Assembly (NCBI GenBank): GCA_023247705.1
Contig: JAHFFY010000002.1
Span: 38,251-102,250, forward strand
Source: Candidatus Omnitrophota bacterium
GTDB lineage: Bacteria > Omnitrophota > Gorgyraeia > Zapsychrales > JAHFFX01
Direction of reading: 5' to 3'
DNA: 64,000 nucleotides
Part shown: piece after piece, positions 2,730 to 56,576 of the stretch
How the letters are laid out: every line of letters starts with the position of its first letter
How positions within the stretch are numbered: position 1 is the stretch's first letter
Made by a program: the position numbers and the translations under genes
Notes under the pieces: model-generated
Seen by the model: only the letters and a program-made list of their open reading frames with translations
Database searches by the model: none
What the model was told of the DNA's origin: nothing

Positions 2730-4145
2730 ATGTCCAAAGTCGCGAAATTAATCATTTTGATTTTATTCCTTCTTCTTGGAGCTAGTATTTTTGTTATTTT
2801 CTCTACGTTGTCCCAAAAACAATCGTTGGAAAAAGCCAAAAAAGATCTGGAAGACCAAGTCTTGAAAGGTGAAACTTTAGCTAAGAACCTGACAGGAGAA
2901 AAGGTATCTTTAGAGAAAGCCAAAACGGATTTGGAAGATCAGCTTAATGAAATTCAGGCGACGAAAAGCAAATTAGAAAAAGACGTTGAGAAACTCAATT
3001 CTCAGGTCAAAAGTTTTGATGTTCAGATTAAAGATTTAATGAGAGAGAAAGATGAGTGGAAGGGCCGCGTTGATTCCATTAAAAAAGAACGCGACGATTT
3101 GATGACCCGCATCCAAGATAAAGAGAAAGAATTAGCAAAGAAAAATTTAGAAATCTCAACGTTAAATCAAACCATCAGCCAACAGACAGCTCAACAACCC
3201 GCGCAAACTGGGGCATACGTTCCCGTTCCTTCTGCGGCGACTTCCGCGGCAGCGCAGACAAGTCCTTCCGGAAATCAATCGAATAATGAATCAGAGTCTT
3301 ATCTCGCGCAGGTTTTAAAAGAAAAGGCCAATCTTGAGGTACAAATAAGCGACCTGAAGAATAAATTAAATAGTAGCAGTTTAAATGTTGTCGAACTGAA
3401 AAATAAACTTGATAATGTAGAGGTGGAACTGAATGGTCTTAAGAGCGAAAAAATCGATATCGAAAATAAAGTAAAATATAACGAAGATTTAGCCAATACG
3501 CTTTCGATTGATTTAGCTCGCTCCAAGAACGATAAAAAAGGCGTCAGTGATCGGGTCGAACAGCTGCGCCTTGATAACACGGATCTCCGAGGGCAGATTA
3601 AAAATTTGACCAATACGAAAATGGCGTTGGAAAAAAGCGTTGTCCAGCTTACTGATCAAAAGAATAATATAGAAAAGAAATTAGCGGAAACGGAAAGCGT
3701 CATTCAAGGCCGCATTAATGAAATTTTGGAAATGAAAGACAGTCTAGATAAACCCGCTTTTAAAGAAAAGCTGGATGAGCTTTCCCAGCTTCAAAGCAGC
3801 ATTGCCACTAAATATAAATCGTCGGAAGATACGAAGGAAATTGAATTGCCCCCGATTGTTGTGAGCGCTGGGGGATCGTACGCCGGCAAAATGCCGCAGG
3901 CCGTTGAAGAAAATGGCGGCGCTTCGGGATTAAATGGGCGCATCGTGAGTATCAATGAGGAAAACAATTTTGCGATTGTTGATCTGGGAGAAGATAGCGG
4001 CGTCCAGATAGGCGACACGTTAAATGTTTATCGTGATACCGAAGTCATCGCGACTTTAAGCATCATCCAAGTCAGAAAAGATGTGTCGGCAGCTGATATC
4101 ATCAAACTATCGGCAAAATTAAAAGTTGGCGATACTGTTCAGTAA
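2730..4145 (+). CDS. Membrane-anchored coiled-coil protein.
   Basis: One N-terminal TM helix. A long heptad-rich region has reiterated 'LEKAK.DLEDQ' units. The C-terminal ~60 aa form a small globular domain. Confidence 0.55.
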   Translation: MSKVAKLIILILFLLLGASIFVIFSTLSQKQSLEKAKKDLEDQVLKGETLAKNLTGEKVSLEKAKTDLEDQLNEIQATKSKLEKDVEKLNSQVKSFDVQIKDLMREKDEWKGRVDSIKKERDDLMTRIQDKEKELAKKNLEISTLNQTISQQTAQQPAQTGAYVPVPSAATSAAAQTSPSGNQSNNESESYLAQVLKEKANLEVQISDLKNKLNSSSLNVVELKNKLDNVEVELNGLKSEKIDIENKVKYNEDLANTLSIDLARSKNDKKGVSDRVEQLRLDNTDLRGQIKNLTNTKMALEKSVVQLTDQKNNIEKKLAETESVIQGRINEILEMKDSLDKPAFKEKLDELSQLQSSIATKYKSSEDTKEIELPPIVVSAGGSYAGKMPQAVEENGGASGLNGRIVSINEENNFAIVDLGEDSGVQIGDTLNVYRDTEVIATLSIIQVRKDVSAADIIKLSAKLKVGDTVQ

Positions 4146-16891: not shown

Positions 16892-17230
16892 ATGAATATG
16901 TTTACCAAACAGGAAAAGATTGTTTTGATTTTTTTGATGAGCGTTTTGCTTTTTGGGACGGTTTTGCAATATTGCTTTAAGAAAAATCCTCAATGGGCGC
17001 AGAATTTTTCGGTCCTCGAAAGTCATCGGTCATACGTTAAAATTAATTTGAATACGGCAACTCCTCAAGAGCTGGAAGCACTTCCGTTTATCGGTCCAAC
17101 CCTCGCGCAGCGGATCATTGATTATCGCAAAATCCACGGGTCTTTTTTTTCGCTGGAAGAACTCAAGATGGTCCAAGGCCTGAACCAAGGGGTTTTAAAT
17201 AAAATCACTCCGTTCCTCAAGGTTGACTGA
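16892..17230 (+). CDS. comEA: Competence protein ComEA (helix-hairpin-helix DNA-binding protein).
   Basis: C-terminal 'INLNTATPQELEALPFIGPTLAQRIIDYR' (HhH)2 motif. N-terminal TM anchor. Confidence 0.7.
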   Translation: MNMFTKQEKIVLIFLMSVLLFGTVLQYCFKKNPQWAQNFSVLESHRSYVKINLNTATPQELEALPFIGPTLAQRIIDYRKIHGSFFSLEELKMVQGLNQGVLNKITPFLKVD

Positions 17231-17285
17231 TTTTGGGGATTAGTTTGGTAGATAAAAGATAGATGCTTCACACATAAGAAATATC

Positions 17286-17314
17286 TTGACTCGTTGACGG
17301 AATATACATACTAT
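17286..17314 (+). promoter_or_regulatory. Sigma70-type promoter P2 (TTGACT-17-TACTAT) upstream of the large FG-GAP gene.
   Basis: Hexamers at 17286-17291 and 17309-17314. Confidence 0.4.
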
Positions 17315-17391
17315 ACTTTCCTAAATAAGAAAGATTCTTCAAGCTGTTTAATCTCCTCCTTTTTTTATCCATCTACCTTTTGAGATCCGCC

Positions 17392-17420
17392 TTGACAGTA
17401 TTCTCCGTCAACTTTAGAAT
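17392..17420 (+). promoter_or_regulatory. Near-consensus sigma70 promoter P1 (TTGACA-17-TAGAAT), overlapped by a TTGAC-n10-GTCAA dyad.
   Basis: Hexamers at 17392-17397 and 17415-17420. A dyad TTGACAgtattctccGTCAA covers the -35 element and spacer. Confidence 0.5.
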
Positions 17421-17519
17421 AATCGGAAATTGCTTCCAATTCCATTGTCCTTTTATTCATTAAAATTTTTCAGAGAAAAAAGGTTCGTGTTGACGATCGT
17501 TTCTCCAAGGGGTGTATGA

Positions 17520-20500
17520 ATGAAGCGGTTTCTGATTCTATTGGTTTTAAATCTTTCTCTATGCTCATCAACGGTTTTCATCTGGGCTGAAGAATCCGGT
17601 CCCGGCGTTCTTTCTGCCGCGCATAACGAAACCGAATCCGCTTCCGCCGAAACCATTTTGCAGACCATCCAGGATTTGGAATCTGCACGCGATCCGAAAT
17701 GTTACGCTACGGCGACCCGGTTGGAAAATATGATCTACGGGATCCCTTTAAAAGACGAAGCCCGATTTAAGAAAATCGATCTGCAAAAGGCATTGATCCG
17801 ACGGGTTTGGCAGAACGCTTCATCGGCCGTCAAAGCCAAAGGTGTCGCCGGGGCCCGTGTGAGCAAAGAAGACCTTCAGTTGGTCGTTCAAAAGATTTTG
17901 TATTATTCCAGAACCAAAGACGAAGATTTTATAGTGGAGATCCCTTCTCAAGAGCCGCGCATCATCAAGAAGCTGCGTTTTTCCCAATACACCTCAGTGG
18001 CCTATGCCCTGCGGGCGATTTTTGCCGTACAGCAGGATGAACTATTATTGAATGACCATGATGAACTGGTGCCTTTAGATCAAGACGCGATTGCTTTTCT
18101 GAAAGAAGTGGTGGATGTTTACACGATGATCGCGCTGGATCTGGCCAGCTTTGAGGCGCGCCGGGTCGATCAGCGTTTGATTTCCGCGGAGTTGATCACG
18201 AAGGTATGGAAATCAATTTCTTGGTTAAATCCGCCGGATGCGCAACCCAACTCTCCGCAGCGATCCGTTGTCCTATCCGACCGTGTTTTAAAAAATCAAT
18301 CGGCGATTCTGCAAGAACTGATCGACCGTAAGATCACGGCCTTTGCGGCTTATAATAATACCGTGCCCCTTGAACAAAAAGACAACCTGCTTTTTAAAAT
18401 GATGAGTGAATCGTACGCGCGGGCTCCATTTCCCAAAGAAGAAAACGCCCGATGGGCGATTAAAGAGATGCTGGAAAAGATTTTGATCCAATTTGCGATG
18501 GATGTATTGTTAAAATCCCAGGAGATCGCGCAGGATCGACGTCATCCTTTGGTCACCGCCCAGGACGCTTATACCGCCAGCCAGGCGATCGCGCCTCACG
18601 TCGTTGACGATCATGAGACCGTGATTTTTTTCCCCAATCTTCACCAGGAAGATAAAATTGTTCTAGCCAATTATGATTCCGATTCTTTCCGTGATTTTGG
18701 AACACATTGGCAGGTTCTGAAAGATGTCTTCCAAAAAGATCAGGATATTCGCATCAAAACGAATCTTGACCCGTTTGCCACCGAGATCGTGACCGAAGCA
18801 ATCGCCCAGTACGGGGTGCTAGTGCTTCGTGTGGCTGGAAACAGCGTCAACCGAGAATCCAAACTCAAGAGAGGTGCTCTTGTTGTAACGCCGCGGGATC
18901 TTGAACAAGGCAAAAAATCCATCGACGCATCGGTGAAATTAAATGCGCAAACGAAAGCGGCACTGGTTGAACCGGAGAAAATTATTTCCGCTCCCGGAGA
19001 GTATAATCCTCTTGAGATTAAGGAACCGTTTTTCAGCGATATCACTCGAAAAGTGAAAATCAATTTTGAGCACCGGCTATCGGATTGGTTTGTTCAGTGG
19101 ATCAACGCACCGGATGAGAAAGGGCATGATCGTGTTCTCATCAACAGCGGGGGTGTTGCTGCTGAGGATATTAATAATGATGGTTATCCGGATATTTTGT
19201 TGGTCGGCGGTGGAGGGAACCAATTGCTGATCAATGACGGAAAGGGCCATTTTATCAACAAGACCAAACAAGCCGGGATCAATTTTGTCCGGGAAGACGG
19301 TTCCAAGGGCGAACCGCGCCAGCCGATCATCGCGGATTTCGACAACGACGGATGGCAGGACATTTTGATCACATATGTGGATGACCAGCACCGCCTTTAC
19401 CGCAACATCGACGGAGTTCACTTTGAAGATCTCTCTGCGAAGATCAATTTAGGGGGCAAGGGCATGATCGGCGGGCCGGTGACGGTTTTTGATTTCGACC
19501 AGGACGGTCTGCTCGATATTTATATCGGCTATTACGGCCGCGAGCTGGCGCCGGAACGGCGGTCTGCTTTAGCGGCGTACTTGTATCAGAAGAAGAAGAA
19601 AGGTTTAGGGGCTGCTAGAAGCCAAAGAAAAACTTCCGGCGCTCTGGGAATCGGAGACCCTGCTCAACCCAAAACCAGTTCAGATTTATTCAACACCGGT
19701 TCTTCTGCAGACCTTCCCATTGGCCCAACGCTGAATCTGGATAATAAGAATGCTGCGCCCAACGCGTTGTTGCGCAATTTGGGCGGATTTAATTTCAAGG
19801 ATGTTGCTAAAGGAAGTGGCGCCGAAAATCACCGCTGGACGACCGCGGCCGCGCACACCGATATTGACGGCGACGGTAAACAGGATATCGTTGTGTCTAA
19901 CGATTTCGGTAAAAAAACGATTCTGTTGAATAAAGGCGACGGAAGATTCAAGGACGAGGCGGACGCCCTGGGGATTACCGAGACGTATCATTCGATGAAT
20001 GTGGGGATTGCGGATTTAAACCACGATGATTTTCCGGACATTTATTTTTCAAACATTAACTCCATGTTAAAAAACGCCAAGTACACGTTTCCTAACGCCG
20101 GCACGCCGCTTGACACGACCCCCGGGAATATCGCGAAAATGATTTATAACGAAACAAGCACGTTGTATCTTTCGAAAGTTAAAGATGGCAAATTGCTCAC
20201 ATATGTCCTTTGCGATGATTTCAAGAAAGGCGCGGACGATCTGGGCTGGGCGTGGGACGCGGATTTTTTTGATTTTGATAATGACGGCGACGATGATTTG
20301 TATGTTTTAAACGGATACAATGATTATGCCCAGCGCAAGAATTTGCAATTAAGTCATAATGCCGTGGTCATGTCGGTTTTGACAAAAGTTCATCCCCTGT
20401 TAGAAGAGAATCGTGATTACAAAATTTTTTTCGTCAATCAGGACGGACAAATGGTTAATTTTTCGGATGAGAGCGGGGCGAAGCTGAAAGGGTATTCGTC

Positions 20501-20891
20501 CAGCGCCGTGTATCTGGACTTTGACCGAGACGGGGATTTGGATATGATTTTTAATAACACCAACGCCCCGGCGGTTTTTTATCAAAACAATACCGGTGGC
20601 AAAAACGGAAACCATTGGCTTGCGGTCAAATTGATCGGTGCCCCGCAGAAAAAGACCAACCGCGACGCGATCGGTGCGCGCTTGATCGCGAAGACTCCCT
20701 CGGGAAATCATATCTGGCGGGAAGTGCGCGGCGGAACAGGTTATCTGTCGATGGATCCGAAACAGCAGTATTTTGGTCTGGGGAAAGATACACAGATGGA
20801 TTTGAAAATTGATTGGCCCAACGGTGAGATCCAGAACGTGAAAGGTCTCAAGGCGGATCAGTTTTATACGATCAAACAAGGCGTTCAATAA
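17520..20891 (+). CDS. Large secreted FG-GAP/VCBS beta-propeller protein with a C-terminal ASPIC/UnbV domain.
   Basis: Signal peptide. Repeated 'D.DGD/N.D...' Ca-binding FG-GAP blades, for example 'DINNDGYPDILLVGGG' and 'DFDNDGWQDILI'. The C-terminal 'GTGYLSMDPKQQYFGLG' is UnbV-like. The N-terminal ~500 aa have unknown function. Confidence 0.75.
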   Translation: MKRFLILLVLNLSLCSSTVFIWAEESGPGVLSAAHNETESASAETILQTIQDLESARDPKCYATATRLENMIYGIPLKDEARFKKIDLQKALIRRVWQNASSAVKAKGVAGARVSKEDLQLVVQKILYYSRTKDEDFIVEIPSQEPRIIKKLRFSQYTSVAYALRAIFAVQQDELLLNDHDELVPLDQDAIAFLKEVVDVYTMIALDLASFEARRVDQRLISAELITKVWKSISWLNPPDAQPNSPQRSVVLSDRVLKNQSAILQELIDRKITAFAAYNNTVPLEQKDNLLFKMMSESYARAPFPKEENARWAIKEMLEKILIQFAMDVLLKSQEIAQDRRHPLVTAQDAYTASQAIAPHVVDDHETVIFFPNLHQEDKIVLANYDSDSFRDFGTHWQVLKDVFQKDQDIRIKTNLDPFATEIVTEAIAQYGVLVLRVAGNSVNRESKLKRGALVVTPRDLEQGKKSIDASVKLNAQTKAALVEPEKIISAPGEYNPLEIKEPFFSDITRKVKINFEHRLSDWFVQWINAPDEKGHDRVLINSGGVAAEDINNDGYPDILLVGGGGNQLLINDGKGHFINKTKQAGINFVREDGSKGEPRQPIIADFDNDGWQDILITYVDDQHRLYRNIDGVHFEDLSAKINLGGKGMIGGPVTVFDFDQDGLLDIYIGYYGRELAPERRSALAAYLYQKKKKGLGAARSQRKTSGALGIGDPAQPKTSSDLFNTGSSADLPIGPTLNLDNKNAAPNALLRNLGGFNFKDVAKGSGAENHRWTTAAAHTDIDGDGKQDIVVSNDFGKKTILLNKGDGRFKDEADALGITETYHSMNVGIADLNHDDFPDIYFSNINSMLKNAKYTFPNAGTPLDTTPGNIAKMIYNETSTLYLSKVKDGKLLTYVLCDDFKKGADDLGWAWDADFFDFDNDGDDDLYVLNGYNDYAQRKNLQLSHNAVVMSVLTKVHPLLEENRDYKIFFVNQDGQMVNFSDESGAKLKGYSSSAVYLDFDRDGDLDMIFNNTNAPAVFYQNNTGGKNGNHWLAVKLIGAPQKKTNRDAIGARLIAKTPSGNHIWREVRGGTGYLSMDPKQQYFGLGKDTQMDLKIDWPNGEIQNVKGLKADQFYTIKQGVQ

Positions 20892-20904
20892 ATTCGTCAG
20901 AACG

Positions 20905-21714
20905 ATGACTGCAAAAATACGGACATTTATTTTTATTTTTTTTGGGATCGGTCAACCGTTGTTTGCCGGCATGATCTATCAGAATTTTGAACCGAACAAT
21001 GGAACTCCCGCAAGTTATTCTGAACCGATCGGGTCTCCGCCGCAATATGGCTGGCAGTTTAATGGAACGGTAGTCGGCTTGTCTCAGGAAGGGGATCCGG
21101 TCTATTCCGGAAAATATTCCTGGCAATTGACGGTCCCAGCGGGAGAACATCTGGCCGGCGGTAGCGGGATCGCGGCCCAGGTGCAAACGTATAATATTAA
21201 TTTTGTTCCGCAATGCCACGACCGCTTGACGTTCTGGATCTGGTCGAATCCATCGAAAATCGGGGACCACACGGTGATGGTCAAATTTTTTGATCACGGC
21301 CGATATCACGCGGACGGGATCGGGATCTGGACGACCCAAAAGGCCCAATATCAGGAATGGACCCAATTGAGTTTAATGTTTAACCTTCTTCCTGTTGATT
21401 TTGATCTGGAACATGTCGATAAGATCGAATTTTTTAATTACTGGGACGGAACTTATTATTACGATGACATCGAGGTGAGATCCGATTTCCCTCCGGAAAA
21501 AGATTTAGAATGTTTGAAGAAAGAAGTTATAATTGTTTGTCCAGCGGACACAACCAGTCCAAGCCATGATGTGACTCTTAAATCAATTTTAGGCGTCTCC
21601 CAAGAATATGCTTCATGCGTGACGACGTTTGGTGAACATGGACAGATCGCGGTGGATTATCTTCGCCAGAGAAATAATCGTAACGCGGCCTTTTCAAATA
21701 GCGAAAGAAAATAG
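20905..21714 (+). CDS. Secreted protein with a CBM4/9-like domain, paralogous to the C-terminal domain of 1850-2509.
   Basis: Signal peptide. Shares 'RLTFWIW' and '...YYYDDIEV' with 'KLTFWAK' and '...FYLDDIKYE' of the earlier ORF. Confidence 0.5.
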   Translation: MTAKIRTFIFIFFGIGQPLFAGMIYQNFEPNNGTPASYSEPIGSPPQYGWQFNGTVVGLSQEGDPVYSGKYSWQLTVPAGEHLAGGSGIAAQVQTYNINFVPQCHDRLTFWIWSNPSKIGDHTVMVKFFDHGRYHADGIGIWTTQKAQYQEWTQLSLMFNLLPVDFDLEHVDKIEFFNYWDGTYYYDDIEVRSDFPPEKDLECLKKEVIIVCPADTTSPSHDVTLKSILGVSQEYASCVTTFGEHGQIAVDYLRQRNNRNAAFSNSERK

Positions 21715-21722
21715 AGCCTTCC

Positions 21723-22322
21723 ATGGACGATTTCAATTTGATTCGAAACTGTATTGCGGGCGACAAGAAATCCTGGGATCAACTTGTCGAAAAGTTCGGC
21801 CGGCTGATTTATGACTCAATCATCAGGACTTTGCGGAAATTTGGCCGTCAGGTCAGACAGGAAGATCTGGAAGATTTACACCAAAACTTTTTTACGGATC
21901 TCCTGGATAACGATCATAAAGTTTTAAAGCAATTTGAAGGCAGGAACGGCTGTTCTCTGGCCAGTTATCTGCGCGTCATTGCCGTGCGCAAAACGATCGA
22001 TTATCTCAGGGCGCTCACACCCGTGGTCTCTTTAGATGAGGTCAGCGAGCAAGACGGATCGTTTGATTATCTTTTAAAAGATCTCATTGTTTTTAATACT
22101 CAAAAGGATATTGAACAAAAAGACGCGGTCACTTTGAACGCGATCCTCTTGCAGGAATTGAAAGAAGACGAACAACGCTTGTGTAAAATGATTTTTCTTG
22201 ATCAACGGAATCCCGATTGCATCGCGGAAGACATGGGGATTTCCATCGATCATTTTTACGTCAGAAAACAGCGCATGCTGCAAAAATTGCGCAAGATCGC
22301 GATCGCAAAAAGATTGGTTTAG
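21723..22322 (+). CDS. ECF-subfamily RNA polymerase sigma factor.
   Basis: Region 2 helices 'LVEKFGRLIYDSIIRTL'. C-terminal region 4 'YVRKQRMLQKLRKI'. About 199 aa. Confidence 0.75.
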   Translation: MDDFNLIRNCIAGDKKSWDQLVEKFGRLIYDSIIRTLRKFGRQVRQEDLEDLHQNFFTDLLDNDHKVLKQFEGRNGCSLASYLRVIAVRKTIDYLRALTPVVSLDEVSEQDGSFDYLLKDLIVFNTQKDIEQKDAVTLNAILLQELKEDEQRLCKMIFLDQRNPDCIAEDMGISIDHFYVRKQRMLQKLRKIAIAKRLV

Positions 22323-22366
22323 ATTCTGGGAGGCAGTCCGTCTATTAAATTAGAAAAGATTCTTTT

Positions 22367-23038
22367 ATGATAAACCGTAATTTATTAAAAAATAAAAATT
22401 GTTTAACCGACGAACAAATGGCCTGTTACCTGGAAGGCCTGTTGTCTCCCCGGGAGAAAACCCGACTTGATCAGCATTTGACCGCCTGCGCGTCATGTCA
22501 GGAAAATTTACAAATGCAAATGGCCGTCGCTGATCAGCAGCGGCTGGAAGGCGTGGGCCCTGTTTCGCAACAGATCATTGAACGAGCGCAGAATCTGGTC
22601 AGCGAGCGGTTCGGCTTGAATATGGTCGATGTGATCATAAACTTCAGCGGACAGATTTTTGAATCGCTTAAAACATCCGGAGAAATTATCCTCGGTCCGT
22701 CAACGCCCTTGACGTATAAACTCAGAAGCAAACCGCAAGAGAACGCGAAGATGTTGGTGGTCCATAAAAAAACGAAGGCCCTTCAGTTAACCATCGAGAT
22801 CGCCCGGGAAAAAAAAGATCTTAATACGGTGATTTTAAAAATGAAAGATAGTAAAAATATTCTCGCGCTGGACGGATTGAGAGTCTCTTTGCTGGAATGC
22901 AAAACGGAAATCGAATCTCATCCGACGCAAAAAGGGAAAGTCATCTTTCAAGGCATCCAACCCGGCCGATACACGATCCAGATCTTCAAGAAAGAAAAAC
23001 CGCTCATGGAAGTTTCCCTGCAGCTGATCCAACAATGA
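22367..23038 (+). CDS. Anti-sigma factor with a ZAS-type zinc motif.
   Basis: 'HLTACASCQENL' (HxxxCxxC) lies directly downstream of the ECF sigma gene. No obvious TM segment. Confidence 0.55.
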   Translation: MINRNLLKNKNCLTDEQMACYLEGLLSPREKTRLDQHLTACASCQENLQMQMAVADQQRLEGVGPVSQQIIERAQNLVSERFGLNMVDVIINFSGQIFESLKTSGEIILGPSTPLTYKLRSKPQENAKMLVVHKKTKALQLTIEIAREKKDLNTVILKMKDSKNILALDGLRVSLLECKTEIESHPTQKGKVIFQGIQPGRYTIQIFKKEKPLMEVSLQLIQQ

Positions 23039-25272
23039 CTCGGGTCTGTTTTATTCTAGAGGTTATCCGCAGGAAAGAAAAAATAGCGGCCCGGTTTTAT
23101 GAGAGCGGCGCCGCGAGTTTCCCTTATGAAGAGTTCGCGGTTTCTTTTCCCGGGATAGATCATCATTGCGATGAAATCATAACGCTTTTGAATCAGTCCA
23201 ACCAGATCGGATCATCGAATTCCACGCTATCCGCTCAGCTCAAACGGCTGGGCGCTTTTCTTTATGCCGAGATTTTGCCGCAAGCGATTAGGACTCAATT
23301 GAAAGAATGCAGGAATGAAAACCTGCTCATCCTGATCGACGAATATTTTATCAAAGTTCCGTGGGAATTACTCCATGACGGCGACGCTTTTTTGTGCCTG
23401 CGATTCAACCTGGGGCGCAGCGTCAAAATATCCGGGAACACCAACGCCCCCCAAGAAAGAGAATACACCTTTCCGTTAAAGATGCTGGTCATCGCCGACC
23501 CGACCGGAGATTTAAATTCCTCAAGGGAGGAAGCGAAAGCGATCCAGCAGGAGTTTGATCACAAAAACCGTTTGGTGCGCGTTTCCTGTAAAGTCAAAAA
23601 TGTCGCCATTGAATATGTTCAAAAGAACGTTCACGGATACGATCTTCTGCATTACGCGGGGCATACACATTATGATTTTGACCGTCCGTCCCAGAGCGGC
23701 TGGAAGATGTCCGATGGACTTTTGACGGCCCAGGAGATCGTGAAGCTGGGCAAGGTCCTGGCGTTTCCTTCATTTGTTTTTCTTAATTCCTGTCAGTCGG
23801 CCCACGCCAAAGAATGGAAGAGCGAGAAAGGCGGTGAAGATCCGCTGTTTGGATTGGTGAACGCGTTTTTATTGTGCGGGGTCAAACATTTCATCGGGCC
23901 GTTGTGGGAGATCCCGGACGAAGGGGGCCTGCGTTTCGCCAAGAAATTTTATCAGGAGATCTCCAAAGGACAGACCGTCGGCTGCGCGATCCGGCAGGCG
24001 AGACTGAAAGCGATCGAAGATTTCGGCACGGACAAGATGGTGTGGGCCAGCTATATTTTGTACGGCAATCCGTCTTTTTATTTGTGGCCTTCCCGGATCA
24101 AAACGATCGCGACCTGGGTTAAAAAAAGGATGACGCCTCCGGTGATCGCCGCGTTGTCGATATTGTGTGTTTTGATCGCAGGCGCTGGAATTTATTCGGT
24201 ATTAAAGGCCAGACTTCCTACGATGAATCCCCGGGCGTATCAGGAGTTAAAGAAAACAGACGTTTTGTTCGCGCGGGGCAATTTCACGGCCGCGGCGCAG
24301 TTTAGCCGCAACGCCCTGCGCTATGATCCTGGTTATGCCGACGCGTATCAGCGACTAGCGCAGGCACAGGTCCGCTTAGGCCAAACAGATCCAGCCATCG
24401 AAAATTTGGTCAAGGCCAGAAACATCCTCAAAGGAAAACATAGCCGGGCAAAACAATCGGCCCAAGTGAATACCGAGCTGGCGAAACTTTTTTTGGTCAA
24501 GGGACATTACTCCTCTGCCATAGATCGTCTGCATGACGTGCTTTCCTATGAGCGTTCTAAGAATAATCCGGAGCGACTCTACAAGGTGTACCACCTTCTG
24601 GGCGATAGCCACGCGACGGCGATGTCTTATGATGAGGCGATCCGGGATTATCAGATGGCCGCGAAGGCCGCTTCAGATTTAGGCAATAAAGATTACCGTC
24701 TTCATGTGAATTTATTATTGGCCGAGAGTTTTAAAGAAAAACTTTTTTTCGTTTTGCTCTTTGGTCAGGATCAATCCAAAGTAGCCGATGATCTCTATCG
24801 ATTGGAGAATCTGTATCGTCAGTTATTGAAAGAATCAGAAATAATGCAGGGTGATCATCAGCGCAGGATCAAGCTATTTGCTTTAAGCGGTTTGGCGCAG
24901 ATTGCTCAGATGAGCGGTAACCGGAAAGCCGCCATTCTCGGTTATGAGGAAAGTTTGTCGCTCCTGGAAAAATCGCAGGATCCGATGGCGCTCGTTTCCT
25001 GGGAAGGCCTTCATTGGTATATCGATTTGGCTAATTTTTATCTCGATGATTTGAATTTTGCCAAGATGATTGCCTCGCTTGAGCGGATCAAGCCGCAGCT
25101 GGTTTCGTTACGCGATGATAACGTATCAGGTTTTCAAAACGGTCTACCGGTCTTCAAGAAAAATCTGCAATTGGTTCTCGACCACCTGGAACAGAAGGGA
25201 TATCTGAATAGCGATTTTTATCGCAAGGTGGAACGGCTTGATCAGGAATTCATGAAGCTAATAAACCATTAA
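23035..25272 (+). CDS. CHAT-domain protease with one TM helix and a C-terminal TPR array.
   Basis: The ATG at 23035 overlaps the anti-sigma TGA as ATGA. Caspase-like His/Cys dyad context 'HYAGHTH...FLNSCQSA'. TM 'VIAALSILCVLIAGAGIY'. TPR repeats fill the C-terminal half. Confidence 0.7.
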   Translation: MTRVCFILEVIRRKEKIAARFYESGAASFPYEEFAVSFPGIDHHCDEIITLLNQSNQIGSSNSTLSAQLKRLGAFLYAEILPQAIRTQLKECRNENLLILIDEYFIKVPWELLHDGDAFLCLRFNLGRSVKISGNTNAPQEREYTFPLKMLVIADPTGDLNSSREEAKAIQQEFDHKNRLVRVSCKVKNVAIEYVQKNVHGYDLLHYAGHTHYDFDRPSQSGWKMSDGLLTAQEIVKLGKVLAFPSFVFLNSCQSAHAKEWKSEKGGEDPLFGLVNAFLLCGVKHFIGPLWEIPDEGGLRFAKKFYQEISKGQTVGCAIRQARLKAIEDFGTDKMVWASYILYGNPSFYLWPSRIKTIATWVKKRMTPPVIAALSILCVLIAGAGIYSVLKARLPTMNPRAYQELKKTDVLFARGNFTAAAQFSRNALRYDPGYADAYQRLAQAQVRLGQTDPAIENLVKARNILKGKHSRAKQSAQVNTELAKLFLVKGHYSSAIDRLHDVLSYERSKNNPERLYKVYHLLGDSHATAMSYDEAIRDYQMAAKAASDLGNKDYRLHVNLLLAESFKEKLFFVLLFGQDQSKVADDLYRLENLYRQLLKESEIMQGDHQRRIKLFALSGLAQIAQMSGNRKAAILGYEESLSLLEKSQDPMALVSWEGLHWYIDLANFYLDDLNFAKMIASLERIKPQLVSLRDDNVSGFQNGLPVFKKNLQLVLDHLEQKGYLNSDFYRKVERLDQEFMKLINH

Positions 25273-25971
25273 TCGTAGATTTTCATCCAACGGGCGTTGT
25301 GTGGAGGCGTTGTTGAGCATTTCCTCCGAGAGGAGCATGAGCTTCAGGCCGCGTTGATAGGTGTTCTTCAAATGTGCGATGGCGGTTTCCGGTTTCGGCA
25401 ATCCGATTTGCTGATAAATGCGGGACGAATACATCGCTTTTAAAGTTGTCTCCGGAGCCATTGAAACGGCTCGATGAAATTCCTGCCGGGCTTTCAGGTA
25501 TTGACCTTCTCTGAAATAAATAATCCCGAGATTATAATCCGCCCAGAAAAAGTTCGGATTGAACTGCCTGGCCCTTTCGAAGGAGAGGACCGCTTCCTTG
25601 GTTTGATTTTGCGCGTCATAACACAGCCCCAGCAAAGCATAGGCTTCCGACAGAGTCGGAAAATAAGTGGTGACCTTTTGATAGTATTCGAGATACTGCG
25701 GGGATAAATGGTTTTGAGACGGACTTTCGAGAAATTGTTTTAATTCAGCAAACGAGGGGATCTGATGGTTGAGGTTGTCGAGTTTGCATTTGCGGTCGAT
25801 CCGTTTTAGATCGACTTTCAGATTAGCCAACGAAAATGCGGATGGAAAACGTTTTTGGATCCGGTGAAAATCTTGAATCGCATTGAATAAGAAAAATAAA
25901 ATCAGCCCTGCGGTCAAAGCCGATTTTCCGAGGAGAATGGATGAGGAGGATATTTTCGCGGATAGTGACAT
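25258..25971 (-). CDS. TPR-repeat protein with an N-terminal membrane anchor.
   Basis: N-terminal TM, then TPR-like 'AYALLGLCYDAQNQTKEA...' units. Confidence 0.5.
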   Translation of the reverse strand: MSLSAKISSSSILLGKSALTAGLILFFLFNAIQDFHRIQKRFPSAFSLANLKVDLKRIDRKCKLDNLNHQIPSFAELKQFLESPSQNHLSPQYLEYYQKVTTYFPTLSEAYALLGLCYDAQNQTKEAVLSFERARQFNPNFFWADYNLGIIYFREGQYLKARQEFHRAVSMAPETTLKAMYSSRIYQQIGLPKPETAIAHLKNTYQRGLKLMLLSEEMLNNASTQRPLDENLRLMVY

Positions 25972-25981
25972 ATGATTTAAA

Positions 25982-27169
25982 TCAGTAATAGATGTTCCAG
26001 CTTAATAGGTCTTCCAATGTTTTTAAACTCCGCAGAAGGAGTAACCCTCCCAAGATGATCCCGACGTTGATCAGCATCCACCGGTTATGACGGAAGATGT
26101 TCACCAAATTAAACGACAAGATGCTCATGGTCATGATTCCGATCGGCGTCAGATAGATAAACGTCCGGCTGGGAAGTTCTCCCCATTCGGTGGTGGCCCG
26201 CATTTTAATAACGAGAATGAAAAACAACGTGCTGAGCAGCATCCATATCATGAAAAAAAGATAAAGCCGGATCGTCTGATATTTTTTGTCTTCCAGGATT
26301 GAACGGTACAGGTCTTCCCGGTAAAATTTGCAGAAGGCCATCAAGAGAAGATATCCCGCCAAAAAGAACAGATCCCGAAGTGAAATATGCGCCGAAACCA
26401 ACGACGGGATGTTTAAAACATCATAACGGACGATCGGGGCGCGAAAATAATAGTCAAGGCAAATGAGCGAGGGAATCAACGTGAGCCAGAGATAAAATTT
26501 TATTCTTCTCTCGCCATGGATCCAGATCAGAATTGAAATCAAAATAATCTGGGCCATGCTCATGATGCTGGTGAGTGATAACAGCAGATGAGTGAGTACA
26601 AGAAGTTGGAAAGCCTTCCTCGCGGTTTTTTCTTCGAAGGTGATCCTGAGGAACAGCAAACTTTGAACAACCGTCAGAAAGATCCATAACGTATAAGGCC
26701 GCGCCTCCACCCAGTAAGCCCAAATTATCGGGGAGGAAAGGGTGAGGAAGAGGGCGTACGCTCCCATGGCCAGTGAATAAAAACGGCTGAAGAAATAGAA
26801 AATCAACGCGATCGCGCAGGACATGAAAATATTCGAAGGGATGCGCAAGAGGTGTTGCGATCCGGGTTCGCTTAGAACCCATTCTCCCTGCCAGGTTATG
26901 GGGAACCGGTATTGGGACAAATCGCAAAGGGCTTTTTGAATCAGATAAAAGAACGGGGCGTTGTTGCCTTCTTTTTGCTTCGCCAGGATGAGGTCCTGAT
27001 AAGAGAGGATCTCAATCACCCGCGTTTGAGAATAAATTTCATCGTTCCATAACGGTTTATGCTGACTCAAAAACGAACCGACGGCAAGACAGATGAGCCA
27101 AACACTCAAGGTCAGAAAGAGAATCCAAACAGATCTTTGTCGTCGTATATTGTTGAATGCTTTATTCAT
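25982..27169 (-). CDS. GT-C-fold membrane glycosyltransferase (ArnT/PMT_2-like).
   Basis: About 11 TM helices. 'WNDEIYS' DE-motif in the first loop. Confidence 0.45.
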   Translation of the reverse strand: MNKAFNNIRRQRSVWILFLTLSVWLICLAVGSFLSQHKPLWNDEIYSQTRVIEILSYQDLILAKQKEGNNAPFFYLIQKALCDLSQYRFPITWQGEWVLSEPGSQHLLRIPSNIFMSCAIALIFYFFSRFYSLAMGAYALFLTLSSPIIWAYWVEARPYTLWIFLTVVQSLLFLRITFEEKTARKAFQLLVLTHLLLSLTSIMSMAQIILISILIWIHGERRIKFYLWLTLIPSLICLDYYFRAPIVRYDVLNIPSLVSAHISLRDLFFLAGYLLLMAFCKFYREDLYRSILEDKKYQTIRLYLFFMIWMLLSTLFFILVIKMRATTEWGELPSRTFIYLTPIGIMTMSILSFNLVNIFRHNRWMLINVGIILGGLLLLRSLKTLEDLLSWNIYY

Positions 27170-27374: not shown

Positions 27375-29138
27375 GTGCTCATTTTTTTAAAAAGAAAATG
27401 TTGTTGTTTTAAAGTGTGTATGCTAAACTTTTTTTCACTTCCTGTTTTTCTTTCCGTTTTGTCTTCCAAACAAAAATTGGCTGTGGATCATTCTTCTAAA
27501 ATCCTATCCGTTCCGATGGGTACGCATCGCCCTCTTGCGTGGGTGACGGTCTGTTTTGGTTTCGGGGTGTGGATCAATCAATGCGTAAATTTGTCCTTTA
27601 AAGTTTTTGTTTCCTTGACCGTTCTATTGCTGATTTTGAGCGTCGCGACATTGAGGCGAAAAATTTTATCGGCCGTGCTGATCTTGACGGCGATGATTGG
27701 CCTGGGCGTTGTGTATGCCAAGGCCTATCAAACTTCAAACGATCAGGATATCCGGCAGATCGCCAAGTATTATTATAAAAAATCCATTCGGATCAAAGGC
27801 GTTATCATCTTGGATATTGAGAAGAAGAATTTCGGGAAAACTAATAAGATCACTTTCATTTTGGACGTTAAAAACTGCAAAACCAGATACGGATGGAAAA
27901 AGAGATCCGGAAAAATTTTAGTCAATCTCTACCGAGAATCAGAAATTCGTTATGGCGATGAGGTGATGCTGGAAGGAAAACTGCACAAACCGTTCGAGTT
28001 TGCTTCCGACCGGACGTTTTCTTACCGGGATTATCTTGCCCGCCGGGGGATCAGTTATATTTTGAGCGTTAAGAAAGACGGACTGATCGATATTCTTCAG
28101 CCTGACCAAGGCCTTTTGATTAAAAAAAGATCGCTGGATTTTAAACATCGATTAAATCAGATCCTGGAACGGAATTTATCAAAGGAAGAAGCGAGCATCA
28201 TGCAGGCGTTGATTCTCGGGGACCGTTATAACATTCCGAAGGATCTTTATGATCTTTTCAAGATTTCCGGGGTCGCGCATATTCTGGCGATCTCCGGATT
28301 TAATATCGGGATCGTTGCTTATGTTGTTTTTTTGATTTTAAGAATTTTTCCGATCCACCGTCATGGCCAGTCTGTTCTGACGATGTTGTTTCTGGTGTTC
28401 TACGCGTTTCTGACCGGAGGGGACCCGCCGGTTGTCCGCGCCACGATCATGGTCTTGGTTTTTCTGTCCGGATTTTTGATCGAACTGGAATCCGAACCGA
28501 TCAATACGTTATCGTTGGCTGCGTTGATCATTTTATTGATTAATCCCTTTAATCTTTTTGAGGTCGGATTCCAGTTGTCGTTTGTCAGCGTTTTATCGAT
28601 TATTATTTTTTATCCGAAATTCATGCGGCTATTTTTAAAACTAGTTCCCGGGGATATCCTTTCTTCAGATGACAGAGATCTCTCACAGCGACGAAAGAAA
28701 GTTACAAAATTGATTGGTCTGATCATGGAATACTTTCTGCAGTCCATGGCGGTTTCGCTGGCGGCTTATTTAGGCGTCGTTGTTTTGATCGCGTATTATT
28801 TCCATTTGATCACGCCGGTTGTTATCCTGGCCAATCTGGTGGTGATCCCCCTGGCTTCGCTGGCCGTTTTTCTGGGGCTGGGGATCTTGGGGGCGGGATG
28901 GGTCTGTCCGGGTGTGGCGTGGATGTTTGCCAACTGCATCAAGGTTTGCCTCAACCTGATGGTGGGGAGTGTTTTATTGTTTGTTCAGATTCCAGGCGCG
29001 TACTTTCAAGTGAACGCAATTTCGATATGGATCGTCATCGCCTATTACATTTGTATGGCGGCCATTTGTTGGATTATTCCATCGTTGAAATTCCCAAAAA
29101 CCGTGCCAGGGAAGGAGCTGCACGAGAAAATCTTTTAA
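27375..29138 (+). CDS. comEC: ComEC/Rec2 DNA-internalisation channel, lacking the C-terminal metallo-beta-lactamase domain.
   Basis: DUF4131-like N-terminal region plus the competence domain 'ISGVAHILAISGFNIGIV'. No HxHxDH region follows. The exact start is uncertain. Confidence 0.7.
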   Translation: MLIFLKRKCCCFKVCMLNFFSLPVFLSVLSSKQKLAVDHSSKILSVPMGTHRPLAWVTVCFGFGVWINQCVNLSFKVFVSLTVLLLILSVATLRRKILSAVLILTAMIGLGVVYAKAYQTSNDQDIRQIAKYYYKKSIRIKGVIILDIEKKNFGKTNKITFILDVKNCKTRYGWKKRSGKILVNLYRESEIRYGDEVMLEGKLHKPFEFASDRTFSYRDYLARRGISYILSVKKDGLIDILQPDQGLLIKKRSLDFKHRLNQILERNLSKEEASIMQALILGDRYNIPKDLYDLFKISGVAHILAISGFNIGIVAYVVFLILRIFPIHRHGQSVLTMLFLVFYAFLTGGDPPVVRATIMVLVFLSGFLIELESEPINTLSLAALIILLINPFNLFEVGFQLSFVSVLSIIIFYPKFMRLFLKLVPGDILSSDDRDLSQRRKKVTKLIGLIMEYFLQSMAVSLAAYLGVVVLIAYYFHLITPVVILANLVVIPLASLAVFLGLGILGAGWVCPGVAWMFANCIKVCLNLMVGSVLLFVQIPGAYFQVNAISIWIVIAYYICMAAICWIIPSLKFPKTVPGKELHEKIF

Positions 29139-55980: not shown

Positions 55981-56576
55981 ACTTCGCCGTCTTCGCCTCA
56001 GGCCACGGTTCCAATCTGCAGGCCATCATTGATGCTTTGAAAAAGAAAAAAATCAAAACGCGCTTGGCGTTGGTTGTTTGCGATCGTAAGGACGCCCGCG
56101 CTCTGCAGCGCGCCGCGAAAGCTAAAATCCCATCGGTCTTGATCGACCCGCAGTCATTTCCCAACCGGGAACTGTTTGACCGGGAAGCGGTGAAACACCT
56201 GGAGGCCGCTCGGATCGATTTCATCGTCCTCGCCGGATTCATGCGGATTTTAAGTCCGTATTTCATCAAAGCGTATGAAGGAAAGATCCTCAACATCCAT
56301 CCATCGCTCTTGCCCGCCTTTAAAGGCGCCCATGCCATCCGCGATGCCTTCGCGCACGCGGTCAAAGTGACCGGCGTCACGGTCCATTTTGTGACGGAAG
56401 AACTCGACCACGGTCCGATCATCCTGCAGGAATCCCTCGCGGTCAGCTCCCAAGACACCTTGGCATCGCTTGAAAAGAAAATTCATGGCCTTGAACACAA
56501 ACTCTATCCGAAGGCGATTGATCTTTTCGCCCGCGGGCGTTTGTCGTTCGCCGGCCGCAAGGTCGTTATTCGCTGA
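55977..56576 (+). CDS. purN: Phosphoribosylglycinamide formyltransferase.
   Basis: 'VFASGHGSNLQAI' and 'NIHPSLLPAFKG' motifs. Confidence 0.85.
   Translation: MNFAVFASGHGSNLQAIIDALKKKKIKTRLALVVCDRKDARALQRAAKAKIPSVLIDPQSFPNRELFDREAVKHLEAARIDFIVLAGFMRILSPYFIKAYEGKILNIHPSLLPAFKGAHAIRDAFAHAVKVTGVTVHFVTEELDHGPIILQESLAVSSQDTLASLEKKIHGLEHKLYPKAIDLFARGRLSFAGRKVVIR

Follow-up and report, generated by a model that had tools for sequence, protein, structure and literature searches.

A conserved ECF sigma factor, soluble anti-sigma factor and putative single-pass CHAT receptor protease cassette in Omnitrophota and other bacteria

Sigma factors of the extracytoplasmic function (ECF) type can be held by anti-sigma factors, and how such a sigma factor could be set free by a CHAT (caspase-like) protease is the question raised by a locus in a 64,000-nt stretch of a Candidatus Omnitrophota genome (hereafter the window). 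A preliminary description of this locus had listed five co-oriented genes, and all five open reading frames were found on the + strand with the identities described: an FG-GAP/UnbV_ASPIC protein (17520-20891, 1123 aa), a CBM-like secreted protein (20905-21714, 269 aa), an ECF sigma factor (21723-22322, 199 aa), a soluble ZAS anti-sigma factor (22367-23038, 223 aa), and a CHAT-TM-TPR protein (23035-25272, 745 aa). The reported gaps of 8-9 nt were incorrect; the intergenic distances are 13, 8, and 44 nt, followed by -4 nt. The 44-nt gap is counted from Met1 of the anti-sigma factor, an N-terminus that is conserved among orthologues, and public gene calls begin at Met18. The 4-nt ATGA overlap of the anti-sigma and CHAT genes (23035-23038) was read directly in the sequence.

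The sigma/anti-sigma/CHAT triad was recovered from all three starting points. It was found in 10/10 CHAT-anchored look-ups spanning Omnitrophota, the cultured Desulfonema magnum (CP061800.1), Nitrospirota, and MAGs, in 7/7 distinct genomes reached through the 269-aa protein, and in 13 sigma-anchored metagenome loci, counting those with enough flanking DNA. The total is 27 non-redundant triads across several phyla, with the same gene order, so the association suggested earlier is strongly conserved. That the anti-sigma and CHAT genes are translationally coupled was likewise borne out: 21/27 triads offer a start codon whose overlap with the anti-sigma stop is 1-17 nt. This count leans towards overlap because the CHAT start was taken as the in-frame ATG, GTG, or TTG nearest to the anti-sigma stop. 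Both CHAT genes and ECF genes occur commonly in bacteria, and an unrelated CHAT gene might in principle lie beside an ECF sigma/anti-sigma pair by chance. That explanation has no other support and was rejected as extremely improbable, given 27 loci in the same order, three independent anchors (CHAT, sigma, and CBM-like), and an overlapping start codon in most loci. The core of the locus is a conserved cassette of an ECF sigma factor, a soluble two-domain anti-sigma factor, and a single-pass receptor protease. Elsewhere, the genes that recur beside it encode GH5/CBM, CsgG-like, and Toluene_X envelope proteins; one relative (L024) adjoins ThsB_TIR and HTH_17 genes.

The FG-GAP/UnbV_ASPIC gene had been counted as a member of this module, but it lies outside the conserved unit and was seen in this window only. 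It was absent from the orthologous Omnitrophota loci (7/10 inspected; L004, L006-L010), and in the inspected loci 160-460 nt of intergenic DNA precede the 269-aa gene. The FG-GAP gene, an addition specific to this window, lies 13 nt upstream of the conserved cassette, with which it is probably co-transcribed as cargo or output. The encoded protein is secreted and CRTAC1-like, with a signal-peptide-like N-terminus and profile matches to FG-GAP_3 (2e-35) and UnbV_ASPIC (3.4e-15). Its best FG-GAP stretches begin near residue 775, and roughly its N-terminal half is without a Pfam match, in agreement with the unassigned N-terminal part noted before.

Two tandem sigma70 promoters had been described upstream of this gene. 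Both sites are present as sigma-70-like matches on the + strand, TTGACT-17-TACTAT at 17286..17314 (9/12, a consensus match only), in the 289-nt intergenic region 5' of the FG-GAP gene, and TTGACA-17-TAGAAT at 17392..17420 (11/12, the best of the region). The region as a whole has 18 promoter-like matches, a number not above what chance gives (11.8 +/- 4.0 in shuffles). The TTGAC...GTCAA dyad, formed by the -35 box and spacer of the site at 17392..17420, is real and belongs to a larger imperfect inverted repeat (17293..17412, no strand assigned). Its 15-nt arms, GTTGACGGAATATAC (17293-17307) and GTATTCTCCGTCAAC (17398-17412), are 87% complementary and 90 nt apart, and the repeat joins both promoter-like sites. 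Three of the five GTTGACKRA sites of the window fall within 17222-17412. The repeat is possibly a window-specific operator; its motif was not conserved upstream of the other loci.

In the Omnitrophota version of the cassette, the first gene encodes the 269-aa protein, which is an Omnitrophota accessory to the module. It carries a signal peptide and matches no Pfam family; a CBM-like beta-sandwich spans residues 22-192, and a helical tail that contains Cys comes after it. We propose that it is a periplasmic ligand-binding co-sensor. In tandem copies, the CBM-like domain heads GH5-TIG enzymes (L012, L028), and a tandem-copy gene lies just downstream of CHAT in L003, L004, L006, L007, and L028, the GH5 domain being confirmed for L028; in L003 the next gene is a separate Cellulase. 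A giant Laminin_G_3-GH5 protein is encoded downstream in L025 and a CBM30 protein upstream in L063. The idea of carbohydrate sensing gains circumstantial support from the fold of the CBM-like protein and from the occurrence of its domain on GH5 cellulases that adjoin the module in relatives. The CBM-like protein is confined to an Omnitrophota subclade, so a glycan input cannot be general for the family, and the protein might belong to the output side instead of the input side.

By its sequence, the 199-aa protein is an ECF (group IV) sigma factor, scoring 52.6 bits on TIGR02937 (cutoff 42.9), with Pfam r2 and r4 matches below their cutoffs; the family signature is FEGRNGC. Its second-best NCBIfam match is the type III-E CASP-sigma model (46 bits, cutoff 100). 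The 223-aa anti-sigma factor consists of an N-terminal ZAS-type domain (H37-x3-C41-x2-C44; zf-HC2 30.9 bits, cutoff 22.2), a variable linker with an invariant Arg120 (codon 22724-22726, motif L-R-S), and a C-terminal CarboxypepD_reg/NOMO-like beta-sandwich. As described earlier, it is soluble: its maximum 19-residue hydropathy is 0.90, which indicates that the window protein has no TM helix, and none was found in the anti-sigma factor of any triad. At a membership threshold of E <= 1e-3, the family comprises 499 representatives (about 500 clusters), nearly all of 205-250 aa. The best PDB sequence matches of its profile are marginal and include the DdvA N-terminal domain (E 0.011).

The linker Arg is kept in 27/27 triads and 147/148 representatives, the remaining one having Lys, in the context [LVI]-R-[GSA] (P2 L/V/F/M; P1' S/G/A/N/D). 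With a conservation of 99%, against 92-94% for the zinc ligands, it is the most conserved column of the anti-sigma factor. The H-x3-C-x2-C motif is present in 135/148 representatives; the ZAS cysteines are absent in 8/27 triads and, on this distribution, are dispensable. Because the most conserved residue lies in an otherwise variable interdomain linker, the Arg is likely the scissile site, although it could instead be structural or contact the sigma factor. Separase and gingipain R cleave after Arg; the eukaryotic separase requires Arg at P1 (ExxR), and a partner protein bound to it controls its activity. Separase is, however, a soluble eukaryotic cell-cycle protease with different substrates, and the anti-sigma factor has no acidic P4 residue equivalent to that of ExxR.

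The putative protease comprises a predicted cytoplasmic, separase-like CHAT domain (23035..24084, +, aa 1-350), a single TM helix (24142..24216, +, aa 370-394), and a C-terminal all-alpha TPR superhelix (24229..25272, +, aa 399-745) with a conserved C-terminal NSxFY motif. The CHAT profile matches at 1.5e-37 across aa 72-345, and TPR matches begin at aa 405. The AF2 model (pLDDT 87.9) has a separase-like fold; at the sequence level, similarity of the domain to solved CHAT proteases is marginal (E 0.002-0.17). The His/Cys dyad, singled out for checking in the preliminary description, is invariant on alignment (catalytic His210, codon 23662-23664; catalytic Cys253, codon 23791-23793), as are H206, G209, N251, and S255 among the CHAT homologues. 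A hydrophobic segment before the catalytic Cys was found in 0/114 homologues and one TM helix <=260 aa after it in 111/114. At the N-terminus of relatives stands a Guanylate_cyc domain, dependent on cytoplasmic NTP, and at their C-terminus LpoB/CsgG-like, F5/8 type C, or DUF4384 domains take the place of the TPR. For the window protein, the positive-inside rule gives an ambiguous answer, with about +5 on either side of the TM helix. In the proposed topology, the CHAT domain would be cytoplasmic, anchored by one TM helix, with a variable C-terminal domain outside; in the window this is the TPR superhelix, for which a periplasmic location and a role in sensing or docking are predicted.

Our model, which we hold to be slightly more probable than not, is that a signal-activated CHAT receptor cleaves the anti-sigma factor and thereby frees the sigma factor. 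We infer this cleavage and its site, how the partners dock, what the signal is, and the regulon as follows. The anti-sigma factor would grip the sigma factor via its N-terminal ZAS-type domain and would probably dock on the CHAT protein, the two together behaving like a split transmembrane anti-sigma factor. A periplasmic signal reaching the outer domain of the CHAT protein, in Omnitrophota probably a glycan or else the 269-aa CBM-like protein, loaded with glycan and bound to the TPR array, would activate the cytoplasmic CHAT domain, which would cleave the anti-sigma factor after the invariant linker Arg (L-R120 / S). The sigma-binding fragment would then be lost and the sigma factor released. 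It would drive transcription of the operon and of neighbouring genes that encode secreted glycan-related proteins, these outputs being the FG-GAP/ASPIC protein here and GH5 cellulases with the same CBM-like domain in relatives. In the regions upstream of the cassettes, no ECF-type promoter motif was found to be shared, which leaves both autoregulation and the regulon unsupported.

A stoichiometric complex would account for the conserved linker motif and for the translational coupling just as well as a substrate would. The anti-sigma factor might bind CHAT through its Arg linker as a pseudosubstrate or inhibitor, in a non-proteolytic partner switch or securin-like inhibition; CHAT would sequester the anti-sigma factor and so release the sigma factor, or the anti-sigma factor would keep CHAT off, remaining uncleaved while the true substrate of CHAT is another protein. 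We regard this as unlikely, since an invariant catalytic dyad in >100 homologues speaks for catalysis being in use, the sigma inhibitor is cleaved in the one CHAT/sigma system that has been tested (PMC10028731), and the triad holds no other conserved candidate substrate. An ordinary soluble ZAS redox switch, in which zinc-cysteine oxidation frees the sigma factor as in RsrA or ChrR, appears quite improbable. The CHAT-TPR protein would here be a co-transcribed regulon member, e.g., an envelope-quality protease, rather than a regulator. Eight of the 27 triads have lost the ZAS ligands yet keep a CHAT gene with the start/stop overlap as well as the linker Arg, which is more conserved than the zinc ligands, and a transmembrane partner with a variable outside domain is always present, as expected for extracytoplasmic input. 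These observations outweigh the zf-HC2 match, the widespread zinc motif, and the solubility of the anti-sigma factor, a property of ZAS anti-sigma factors that typically sense cytoplasmic redox stress (PMC8999054).

The characterised CHAT/sigma systems are all linked to defence (PMC11506125, PMC10028731), and the cassette might likewise be an anti-phage module that senses a phage-associated periplasmic protein, rather than glycans, and switches on defence genes. The ThsB_TIR and HTH_17 neighbours of L024 and the 46 bits of the sigma factor on the CASP-sigma model favour such a role. That score is far below the cutoff of 100, however; no convincing match to PADLOC defence families was obtained, the window holds no CRISPR array or cas-sized gene, its neighbouring genes are housekeeping (LeuRS, ComEA, ComEC, MurJ, SecA, Lnt, FtsH), and the recurrent neighbours elsewhere are the GH5/CBM and envelope proteins named above. 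We therefore consider a defence role very improbable.

The proposed cleavage had been called an undescribed route, which is too strong. In craspase, Csx29 (TPR-CHAT) cleaves Csx30 away from its sigma-binding part, relieving inhibition of CASP-sigma (RpoE) (PMC10028731), and CalpL-CalpT-CalpS operates similarly to Csx29-Csx30-CASP-sigma (cited in 10.1101/2023.06.23.546230). Craspase and the window module share a cytoplasmic CHAT protease genetically linked to an ECF-type sigma factor and to a soluble inhibitor made of two parts, the N-terminal one of which binds sigma. In contrast to craspase, no Cas7-11, crRNA, or CRISPR array was found at the window; activation cannot be RNA-guided; the protease is a receptor in the membrane that has one domain outside, in the order CHAT-TM-TPR rather than TPR-CHAT; the inhibitor is a ZAS-type anti-sigma factor with no homology to Csx30 in the searches run; and the sigma factor falls below the CASP-sigma cutoff. 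For DdvA-DdvS of Myxococcus xanthus, CHAT was proposed as a signal-activated protease starting sigma release, and DdvA-like fusions have been reported only in Myxococcota and one Comamonas species (PMC11506125, PMC6061681), whereas the triad is far more widespread. There too, an ECF sigma factor is under a ZAS-type anti-sigma domain tied functionally to TPR and CHAT across the membrane. DdvA, however, is a single ZAS-TM-TPR-CHAT polypeptide with a periplasmic CHAT, a hypothetical site-1 autoprotease ahead of RseP; the window anti-sigma factor is separate and soluble, CHAT is predicted to be cytoplasmic with the TPR array outside, and no intramembrane step is needed.

As in the RseA/DegS/RseP and RsgI/SigI systems, an extracytoplasmic signal would lead to proteolytic inactivation of an anti-sigma factor and free an alternative sigma factor. 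In the RsgI/SigI biomass sensors of Clostridium thermocellum, a carbohydrate-binding module senses and glycoside hydrolases are the output (PMC10328401, PMC4711584), which the CBM-like protein and GH5 neighbours of the window and its relatives resemble. The window anti-sigma factor has no TM helix and site-1/site-2 cleavage therefore cannot apply; the protease is a clan-CD CHAT rather than DegS, RseP, or a SEAL-type autoprotease, the CBM-like element is secreted as a protein of its own, and the sigma factor, unlike SigI, is of the ECF type (group IV). An earlier bioinformatic note of CHAT genes conserved beside an ECF sigma factor, perhaps regulating by proteolysis, concerns ECF54. According to PMC8999054, citing PMC7826278, CHAT, carboxypeptidase, or subtilase genes occur in its context, no anti-sigma factor is present, and the peptidase is proposed to degrade the sigma factor itself, in a putative, Actinobacteria-specific system; the window sigma factor, in contrast, belongs to an unnamed clade that occurs with a dedicated anti-sigma family. 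Given the precedents of craspase-Csx30-CASP-sigma, DdvA, and ECF54, the principle is not wholly new. If true, the cleavage model would place the cassette on a signalling route so far known only from CRISPR-linked and Myxococcus defence systems.

Five ORFs lie in the same direction on the + strand of the window, spanning 17520-25272. The first (17520-20891, +) encodes a 1123-aa protein with a signal peptide and FG-GAP_3 and UnbV_ASPIC matches; its sole solved relative is cartilage acidic protein 1, and no Pfam match was reported for approximately its N-terminal half. It is followed by genes for a secreted 269-aa protein without a Pfam family (20905-21714, +), a 199-aa ECF sigma factor (21723-22322, +; TIGR02937, 52.6 bits against a cutoff of 42.9), a 223-aa anti-sigma factor with a zf-HC2 match (22367-23038, +) and a 745-aa CHAT protein (23035-25272, +; PF12770), in which a hydrophobic helix at aa 370-394 is followed by TPR repeats. 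Gene calls and domain matches confirmed the five genes of the preliminary description with minor corrections: its intergenic gaps of 8-9 nt were only roughly right, the measured distances being 13, 8 and 44 nt, and its 4-nt ATGA overlap between the anti-sigma and CHAT genes was found as described. Public gene calls place the anti-sigma start at Met18 (206 aa), which affects the stretch 22367-22417. The 223-aa form starting at Met1 (22367) is the most likely one judging from the alignments, because the 17 residues before Met18 are kept in orthologues as MINxN...L(T/S)DE (M1, N3, L13, D15 and E16).

The genes around the cassette are of the housekeeping type (MnmG, LeuRS, ComEA, ComEC, MurJ, SecA, Lnt and FtsH). 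A comEA-like gene (HHH_3, 16892-17230) and comEC (Competence/DUF4131, 27375-29138) are kept apart by the whole cassette and two reverse-strand genes, which looks like an insertion of the cassette between the two competence genes. The first reverse-strand gene (25258-25971, -) is convergent with the CHAT gene, sharing 15 nt with its 3' end, and encodes a 237-aa TPR protein whose N-terminus contains a hydrophobic segment; the second (25982-27169, -) is a 395-aa ORF that matched nothing in Pfam. Two other window ORFs, at 2730-4145 (+, 471 aa) and 56566-57936 (-, 456 aa), had no Pfam match at E ≤ 1e-6.

To determine which of these genes travel together, the locus was approached from three independent anchors, namely the CHAT protein, the 269-aa protein and the sigma factor. 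All ten CHAT homologues examined (27-100% identity in full-length alignments, some of them 40-49% over the CHAT-domain segment alone) are encoded directly behind a ~200-aa sigma factor and a ~220-240-aa anti-sigma factor of the same family. Their hosts include further MAGs of Omnitrophota and "Candidatus Gygaella", together with a Nitrospirae assembly, a contig from groundwater and the cultured Desulfonema magnum (CP061800.1, homologue at 598277-608997). When 185,579 species genomes were scanned with the 269-aa protein, a single-domain orthologue turned up in seven distinct genomes, in each of which the sigma, anti-sigma and CHAT genes come next (7/7). The sigma anchor gave 34 loci in a metagenome scan, with the full triad in 13 that had enough downstream DNA, and four further loci stop inside a family-type anti-sigma. 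At one locus (L036, 2080-2664, -), an integrase-like gene follows the sigma gene in place of the anti-sigma and CHAT genes, and this sigma copy is probably disrupted.

In total, 27 non-redundant triads were obtained, and the link between the CHAT gene and the sigma/anti-sigma pair is thus conserved in relatives. The anti-sigma gene lies directly downstream of the sigma gene in all 27 loci. A CHAT start codon overlapping the anti-sigma stop by 1-17 nt is available in 21 of them, a count that leans towards overlap since, of the in-frame start codons, the one closest to that stop was taken as the CHAT start; the exact ATG at -4 occurs in 11, and gaps of 5-19 nt in four. The FG-GAP protein, originally described as part of the unit, was found in the window only and is missing from the other loci inspected, and it was dropped as a member of the conserved module; 160-460 nt of intergenic DNA precede the 269-aa gene in the seven loci inspected among ten other Omnitrophota loci. 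The 269-aa gene is itself confined to an Omnitrophota subclade, and the universal core therefore consists of the sigma, anti-sigma and CHAT genes. The triad of 'Ca. Gygaella' (L024, with a CHAT-TPR protein of 1251 aa) adjoins ThsB_TIR and HTH_17 genes (L024 1364-1807), a possible defence context.

The TIGR02937 match covers aa 18-191 of the window sigma, and the same model was matched by 10/10 members of the sigma family. Profile comparison with solved ECF sigmas (SigH/AlgU-like, SigW and RpoE) gave values of 1e-9 to 1e-14, and the Pfam region 2 and region 4 matches each fell below cutoff. With a length of ~200 aa, sigma2 and sigma4 only and an ECF profile match, the protein is assigned by sequence to the ECF (group IV) sigmas. 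About nine more distant sigmas (≤32% identity; L043, L049-L052, L054, L055, L057 and L059) have no CHAT gene; the gene that follows them encodes a zf-HC2 anti-sigma of 430-550 aa, which includes a YhdP/DUF748-like membrane part. Wired in the canonical way, this sister clade is the conventional counterpart to the triad.

When 1.84 billion representatives were searched exhaustively by phmmer with the anti-sigma, 499 matched at E ≤ 1e-3 and 166 at E ≤ 1e-10. Nearly all were 205-250 aa long and aligned end to end, indicating a uniform family. The window protein matches zf-HC2 with 30.9 bits (cutoff 22.2), and its zinc motif H-x3-C-x2-C reads HLTACASC; the motif is present in 19/27 triads and 135/148 representatives. 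The domain structure, read from alignments and weak PDB profile matches (RslA, the DdvA N-terminus, RsiW and ChrR; E 0.009-0.46), comprises an N-terminal ZAS-type domain, predicted to bind and inhibit the partner sigma, and a C-terminal part resembling CarboxypepD_reg/NOMO-type beta-sandwiches. No TM helix was detected in the triad members: the maximum 19-residue Kyte-Doolittle value of the window protein is 0.90, all 11 aligned orthologues stay below 1.6, and only 5/148 representatives exceed this value.

The best-conserved column of the family is an Arg (R120 in the window protein) in an otherwise variable linker. It is present in 27/27 triads and in 147/148 representatives, the remaining one having Lys, and is preceded by L, V, F or M and followed by S, G, A, N or D. 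Separase and gingipain R cut after Arg. Because of this specificity and the conservation of the residue, [LVI]-R|[GSA] is the obvious candidate for a scissile site in the anti-sigma.

The window CHAT protein matches PF12770 with 130.1 bits (cutoff 24). Alignments of 11 and of 27 homologues show no variation at H206, G209, H210, N251, C253 and S255 (window numbering), and the His/Cys dyad (H210 and C253) is accordingly intact. D155, likewise invariant, may be the acidic residue of the S1 pocket. The AlphaFold2 model (pLDDT 87.9) contains two confident parts, an alpha/beta CHAT domain (aa 1-345) and an all-alpha superhelix (aa 399-744), with the TM region modelled at low confidence. At the sequence level the match to solved CHAT proteases was marginal, and the tie was established by the modelled fold, which is caspase/separase-like and has separase and gingipain R as structural neighbours. 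Profile, dyad and model together place the protein among the CHAT peptidases (clan CD), with predicted endopeptidase activity.

Of the 114 homologues that carry the catalytic Cys motif, 111 have exactly one hydrophobic segment within 260 residues after it, and in none of the 114 does such a segment precede it. In many relatives an adenylate/guanylate cyclase domain is fused N-terminally to CHAT (e.g. proteins P0039, P0045 and P0065 of loci L038, L048 and L064), and the C-terminal parts vary between TPR, LpoB/CsgG-like, F5/8 type C and DUF4384 domains. Because a nucleotide cyclase is necessarily cytoplasmic and the C-terminal domains are typical of the envelope, the CHAT domain is predicted to be cytoplasmic and the variable C-terminal domain to lie outside. 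The charge around the window TM helix does not by itself settle the topology. The cyclase-CHAT fusions suggest a second output or input for the same receptor, based on cyclic nucleotides.

On balance, we favour a reading in which the CHAT protein is a receptor protease that crosses the membrane once and has the soluble anti-sigma as its substrate. An outside signal would act on the C-terminal domain of the CHAT protein, the cytoplasmic CHAT domain would become active and cut the anti-sigma at the linker Arg, and the sigma would be set free to transcribe the operon and neighbouring envelope or glycan genes; in the window, this output probably includes the co-transcribed FG-GAP/ASPIC protein. 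The linker Arg could be structural instead, and a securin-like complex in which the anti-sigma stays uncleaved is the most probable, though still unlikely, competitor. Somewhat less probable is a simple redox switch of the ZAS type, in which CHAT would be cargo. The ZAS motif is lost in 8/27 triads (L006, L008, L010, L025, L029, L030, L053 and L064) that keep both the linker Arg and the CHAT partner, and the family can therefore do without zinc or redox sensing. We consider a role in phage defence improbable, as neither PADLOC, which matched no defence family convincingly, nor the window context supports it, and the likelihood of a chance adjacency is negligible given a triad recovered from three anchors.

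Direct precedents for cleavage by the CHAT receptor come, by analogy, from three systems: Csx29 cuts Csx30 and thereby relieves the inhibition of CASP-sigma (PMC10028731), CalpL cuts CalpT and releases CalpS (as cited in 10.1101/2023.06.23.546230), and the CHAT domain of DdvA has been proposed to serve as its own site-1 protease (PMC11506125). The window module differs from the type III-E craspase (Cas7-11/Csx29/Csx30/CASP-sigma). The 64-kb window contains no tandem repeat (CRISPR) array and no Cas7-11-like gene (the longest ORF has 1123 aa, and cas-like domains were not found), and the window sigma scores 46.4 bits with the CASP-sigma model NF041236, far below the cutoff of 100. DdvA is a fused ZAS-TM-TPR-CHAT protein with a periplasmic CHAT domain C-terminal to the TPR array. 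In the triad, by contrast, two separate genes are used, the order is CHAT-TM-TPR, an N-terminal signal or TM segment is lacking and the topology is inverted, the relatives' CHAT domain being placed in the cytoplasm because of the cyclase fusions; a DdvA-type fusion was rejected for these reasons. Likewise, processing of a membrane anti-sigma by site-1/site-2 proteases, as for RseA, does not suit an anti-sigma without a TM helix. ECF54, characterised in PMC8999054 as actinobacterial and without an anti-sigma, does not apply either, since every triad locus has a dedicated anti-sigma and the hosts are Omnitrophota, Desulfobacterota and Nitrospirota.

The preliminary description had called CHAT-dependent control of the anti-sigma an undescribed route. 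This was too strong, as Csx29-Csx30-CASP-sigma already establishes the principle that a CHAT protease can control an ECF sigma by way of its inhibitor. In the searchable literature, CHAT goes unmentioned in the main text of the ECF re-classification paper, and there was no paper that brings together CHAT, a sigma factor and adenylate cyclase. What appears not to have been described before is this receptor-type architecture, which is widespread, independent of defence and served by a dedicated family of soluble anti-sigmas.

A shared ECF-type promoter was sought by enumerating bipartite motifs (5-mer, 14-19 nt spacer, 4-mer) in 23 upstream regions. None rose above chance: the best motif was present in 6 sequences, and shuffled regions reached a maximum of 4-6. 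K-mer tallies upstream of the cassettes gave AT-rich words only. In the window itself, the two upstream sigma-70-like sites, initially described as strong tandem promoters, are genuine consensus matches (11/12 and 9/12), but the regional total of such matches is not above that in shuffles. Both sites are connected by an imperfect 15-nt inverted repeat, the arms of which are two copies of GTTGAC(G/T)(G/A)A. Three copies of this word within 190 nt (17222-17412) make up 3/5 of its window matches, with 1.8 expected over the whole 64 kb, and a near-copy, GTTGACGAT, lies at 17489-17497, 31 nt before the FG-GAP start. The GTTGACGGA cluster 5' of the FG-GAP gene looked like an operator or -35 box. It is not kept upstream of other cassettes, where GTTGAC was seen in 5 of ~25, and is best regarded from these comparisons as a window-specific feature. 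Rfam gave nothing credible for a riboswitch or sRNA in the 289-nt leader.

The family of the 269-aa protein comprises 42 proteins, all hypothetical and without a Pfam match; a source organism is named for three of them, Omnitrophota each time. Its confident model (pLDDT 86.9) shows a beta-sandwich with a Cys-containing helical tail; the fold is a beta-jelly-roll of the kind found in known CBM families, and by sequence no Pfam CBM family was matched. Tandem copies of the domain form the N-termini of GH5 (PF00150; Cellulase)-TIG enzymes in two Omnitrophota loci (L012, 6968-10426; L028, 9365-12574), where it is thus a non-catalytic module appended to carbohydrate-active enzymes. A gene with tandem copies lies immediately downstream of CHAT in L003, L004, L006, L007 and L028; among these genes GH5 was confirmed in L028, and L003 has a separate Cellulase gene next. 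The tandem pair also occurs without the sigma module in 13 further loci (range L011-L023). The domain looks like an unannotated CBM-like family with predicted glycan binding.

Other cassettes have comparable neighbours, such as a giant Laminin_G_3-GH5 protein downstream in L025 and a CBM30 protein upstream in L063. Cassettes from outside Omnitrophota have envelope proteins of the CsgG-like, Toluene_X and CarboxypepD_reg types next to them. These findings support a link between Omnitrophota cassettes and polysaccharide-active surface proteins, and with the tandem domains on GH5 enzymes they make the suggested carbohydrate connection plausible. The CBM-like protein may serve as input, by docking on the TPR domain in the role of a co-sensor, or may be an output; the evidence for the link fits either.

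Taken together, we tentatively propose, at somewhat lower confidence than the cleavage itself, that the triad represents a previously unrecognised, widespread class of transmembrane signalling. In this class, a receptor separase would carry interchangeable outside sensors (TPR, LpoB/CsgG-like, discoidin or DUF4384), joined in Omnitrophota by a free CBM-like co-sensor. The sensors would activate CHAT allosterically, the anti-sigma would be cut after the invariant Arg, and the ECF sigma would be freed without site-1/site-2 proteolysis. Csx29-Csx30-CASP-sigma and the fused DdvA would then be specialised offshoots of an older housekeeping module.

ECF sigmas are among the largest bacterial signalling families, and for many groups the signal route to the sigma is unknown. 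The proposed cassette would be a simple alternative to regulated intramembrane proteolysis, in which a receptor brings its own cytoplasmic caspase-family protease and the switch is a soluble anti-sigma cut at one conserved Arg. It would connect the CRISPR craspase-sigma switch and DdvA with a wider family outside defence, provide a bacterial context for separase-like proteases and draw attention to a CBM-like domain family that lacks annotation and occurs with GH5 enzymes. With its modular design of sensor, protease, anti-sigma and sigma, it could also serve as an orthogonal switch in synthetic biology, and the module is experimentally accessible because the cultured Desulfonema magnum has it. 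With an anti-sigma family of ~500 clusters at 50% identity, its reach extends over several poorly studied phyla, including Omnitrophota, for which few regulators have, to our knowledge, been characterised.
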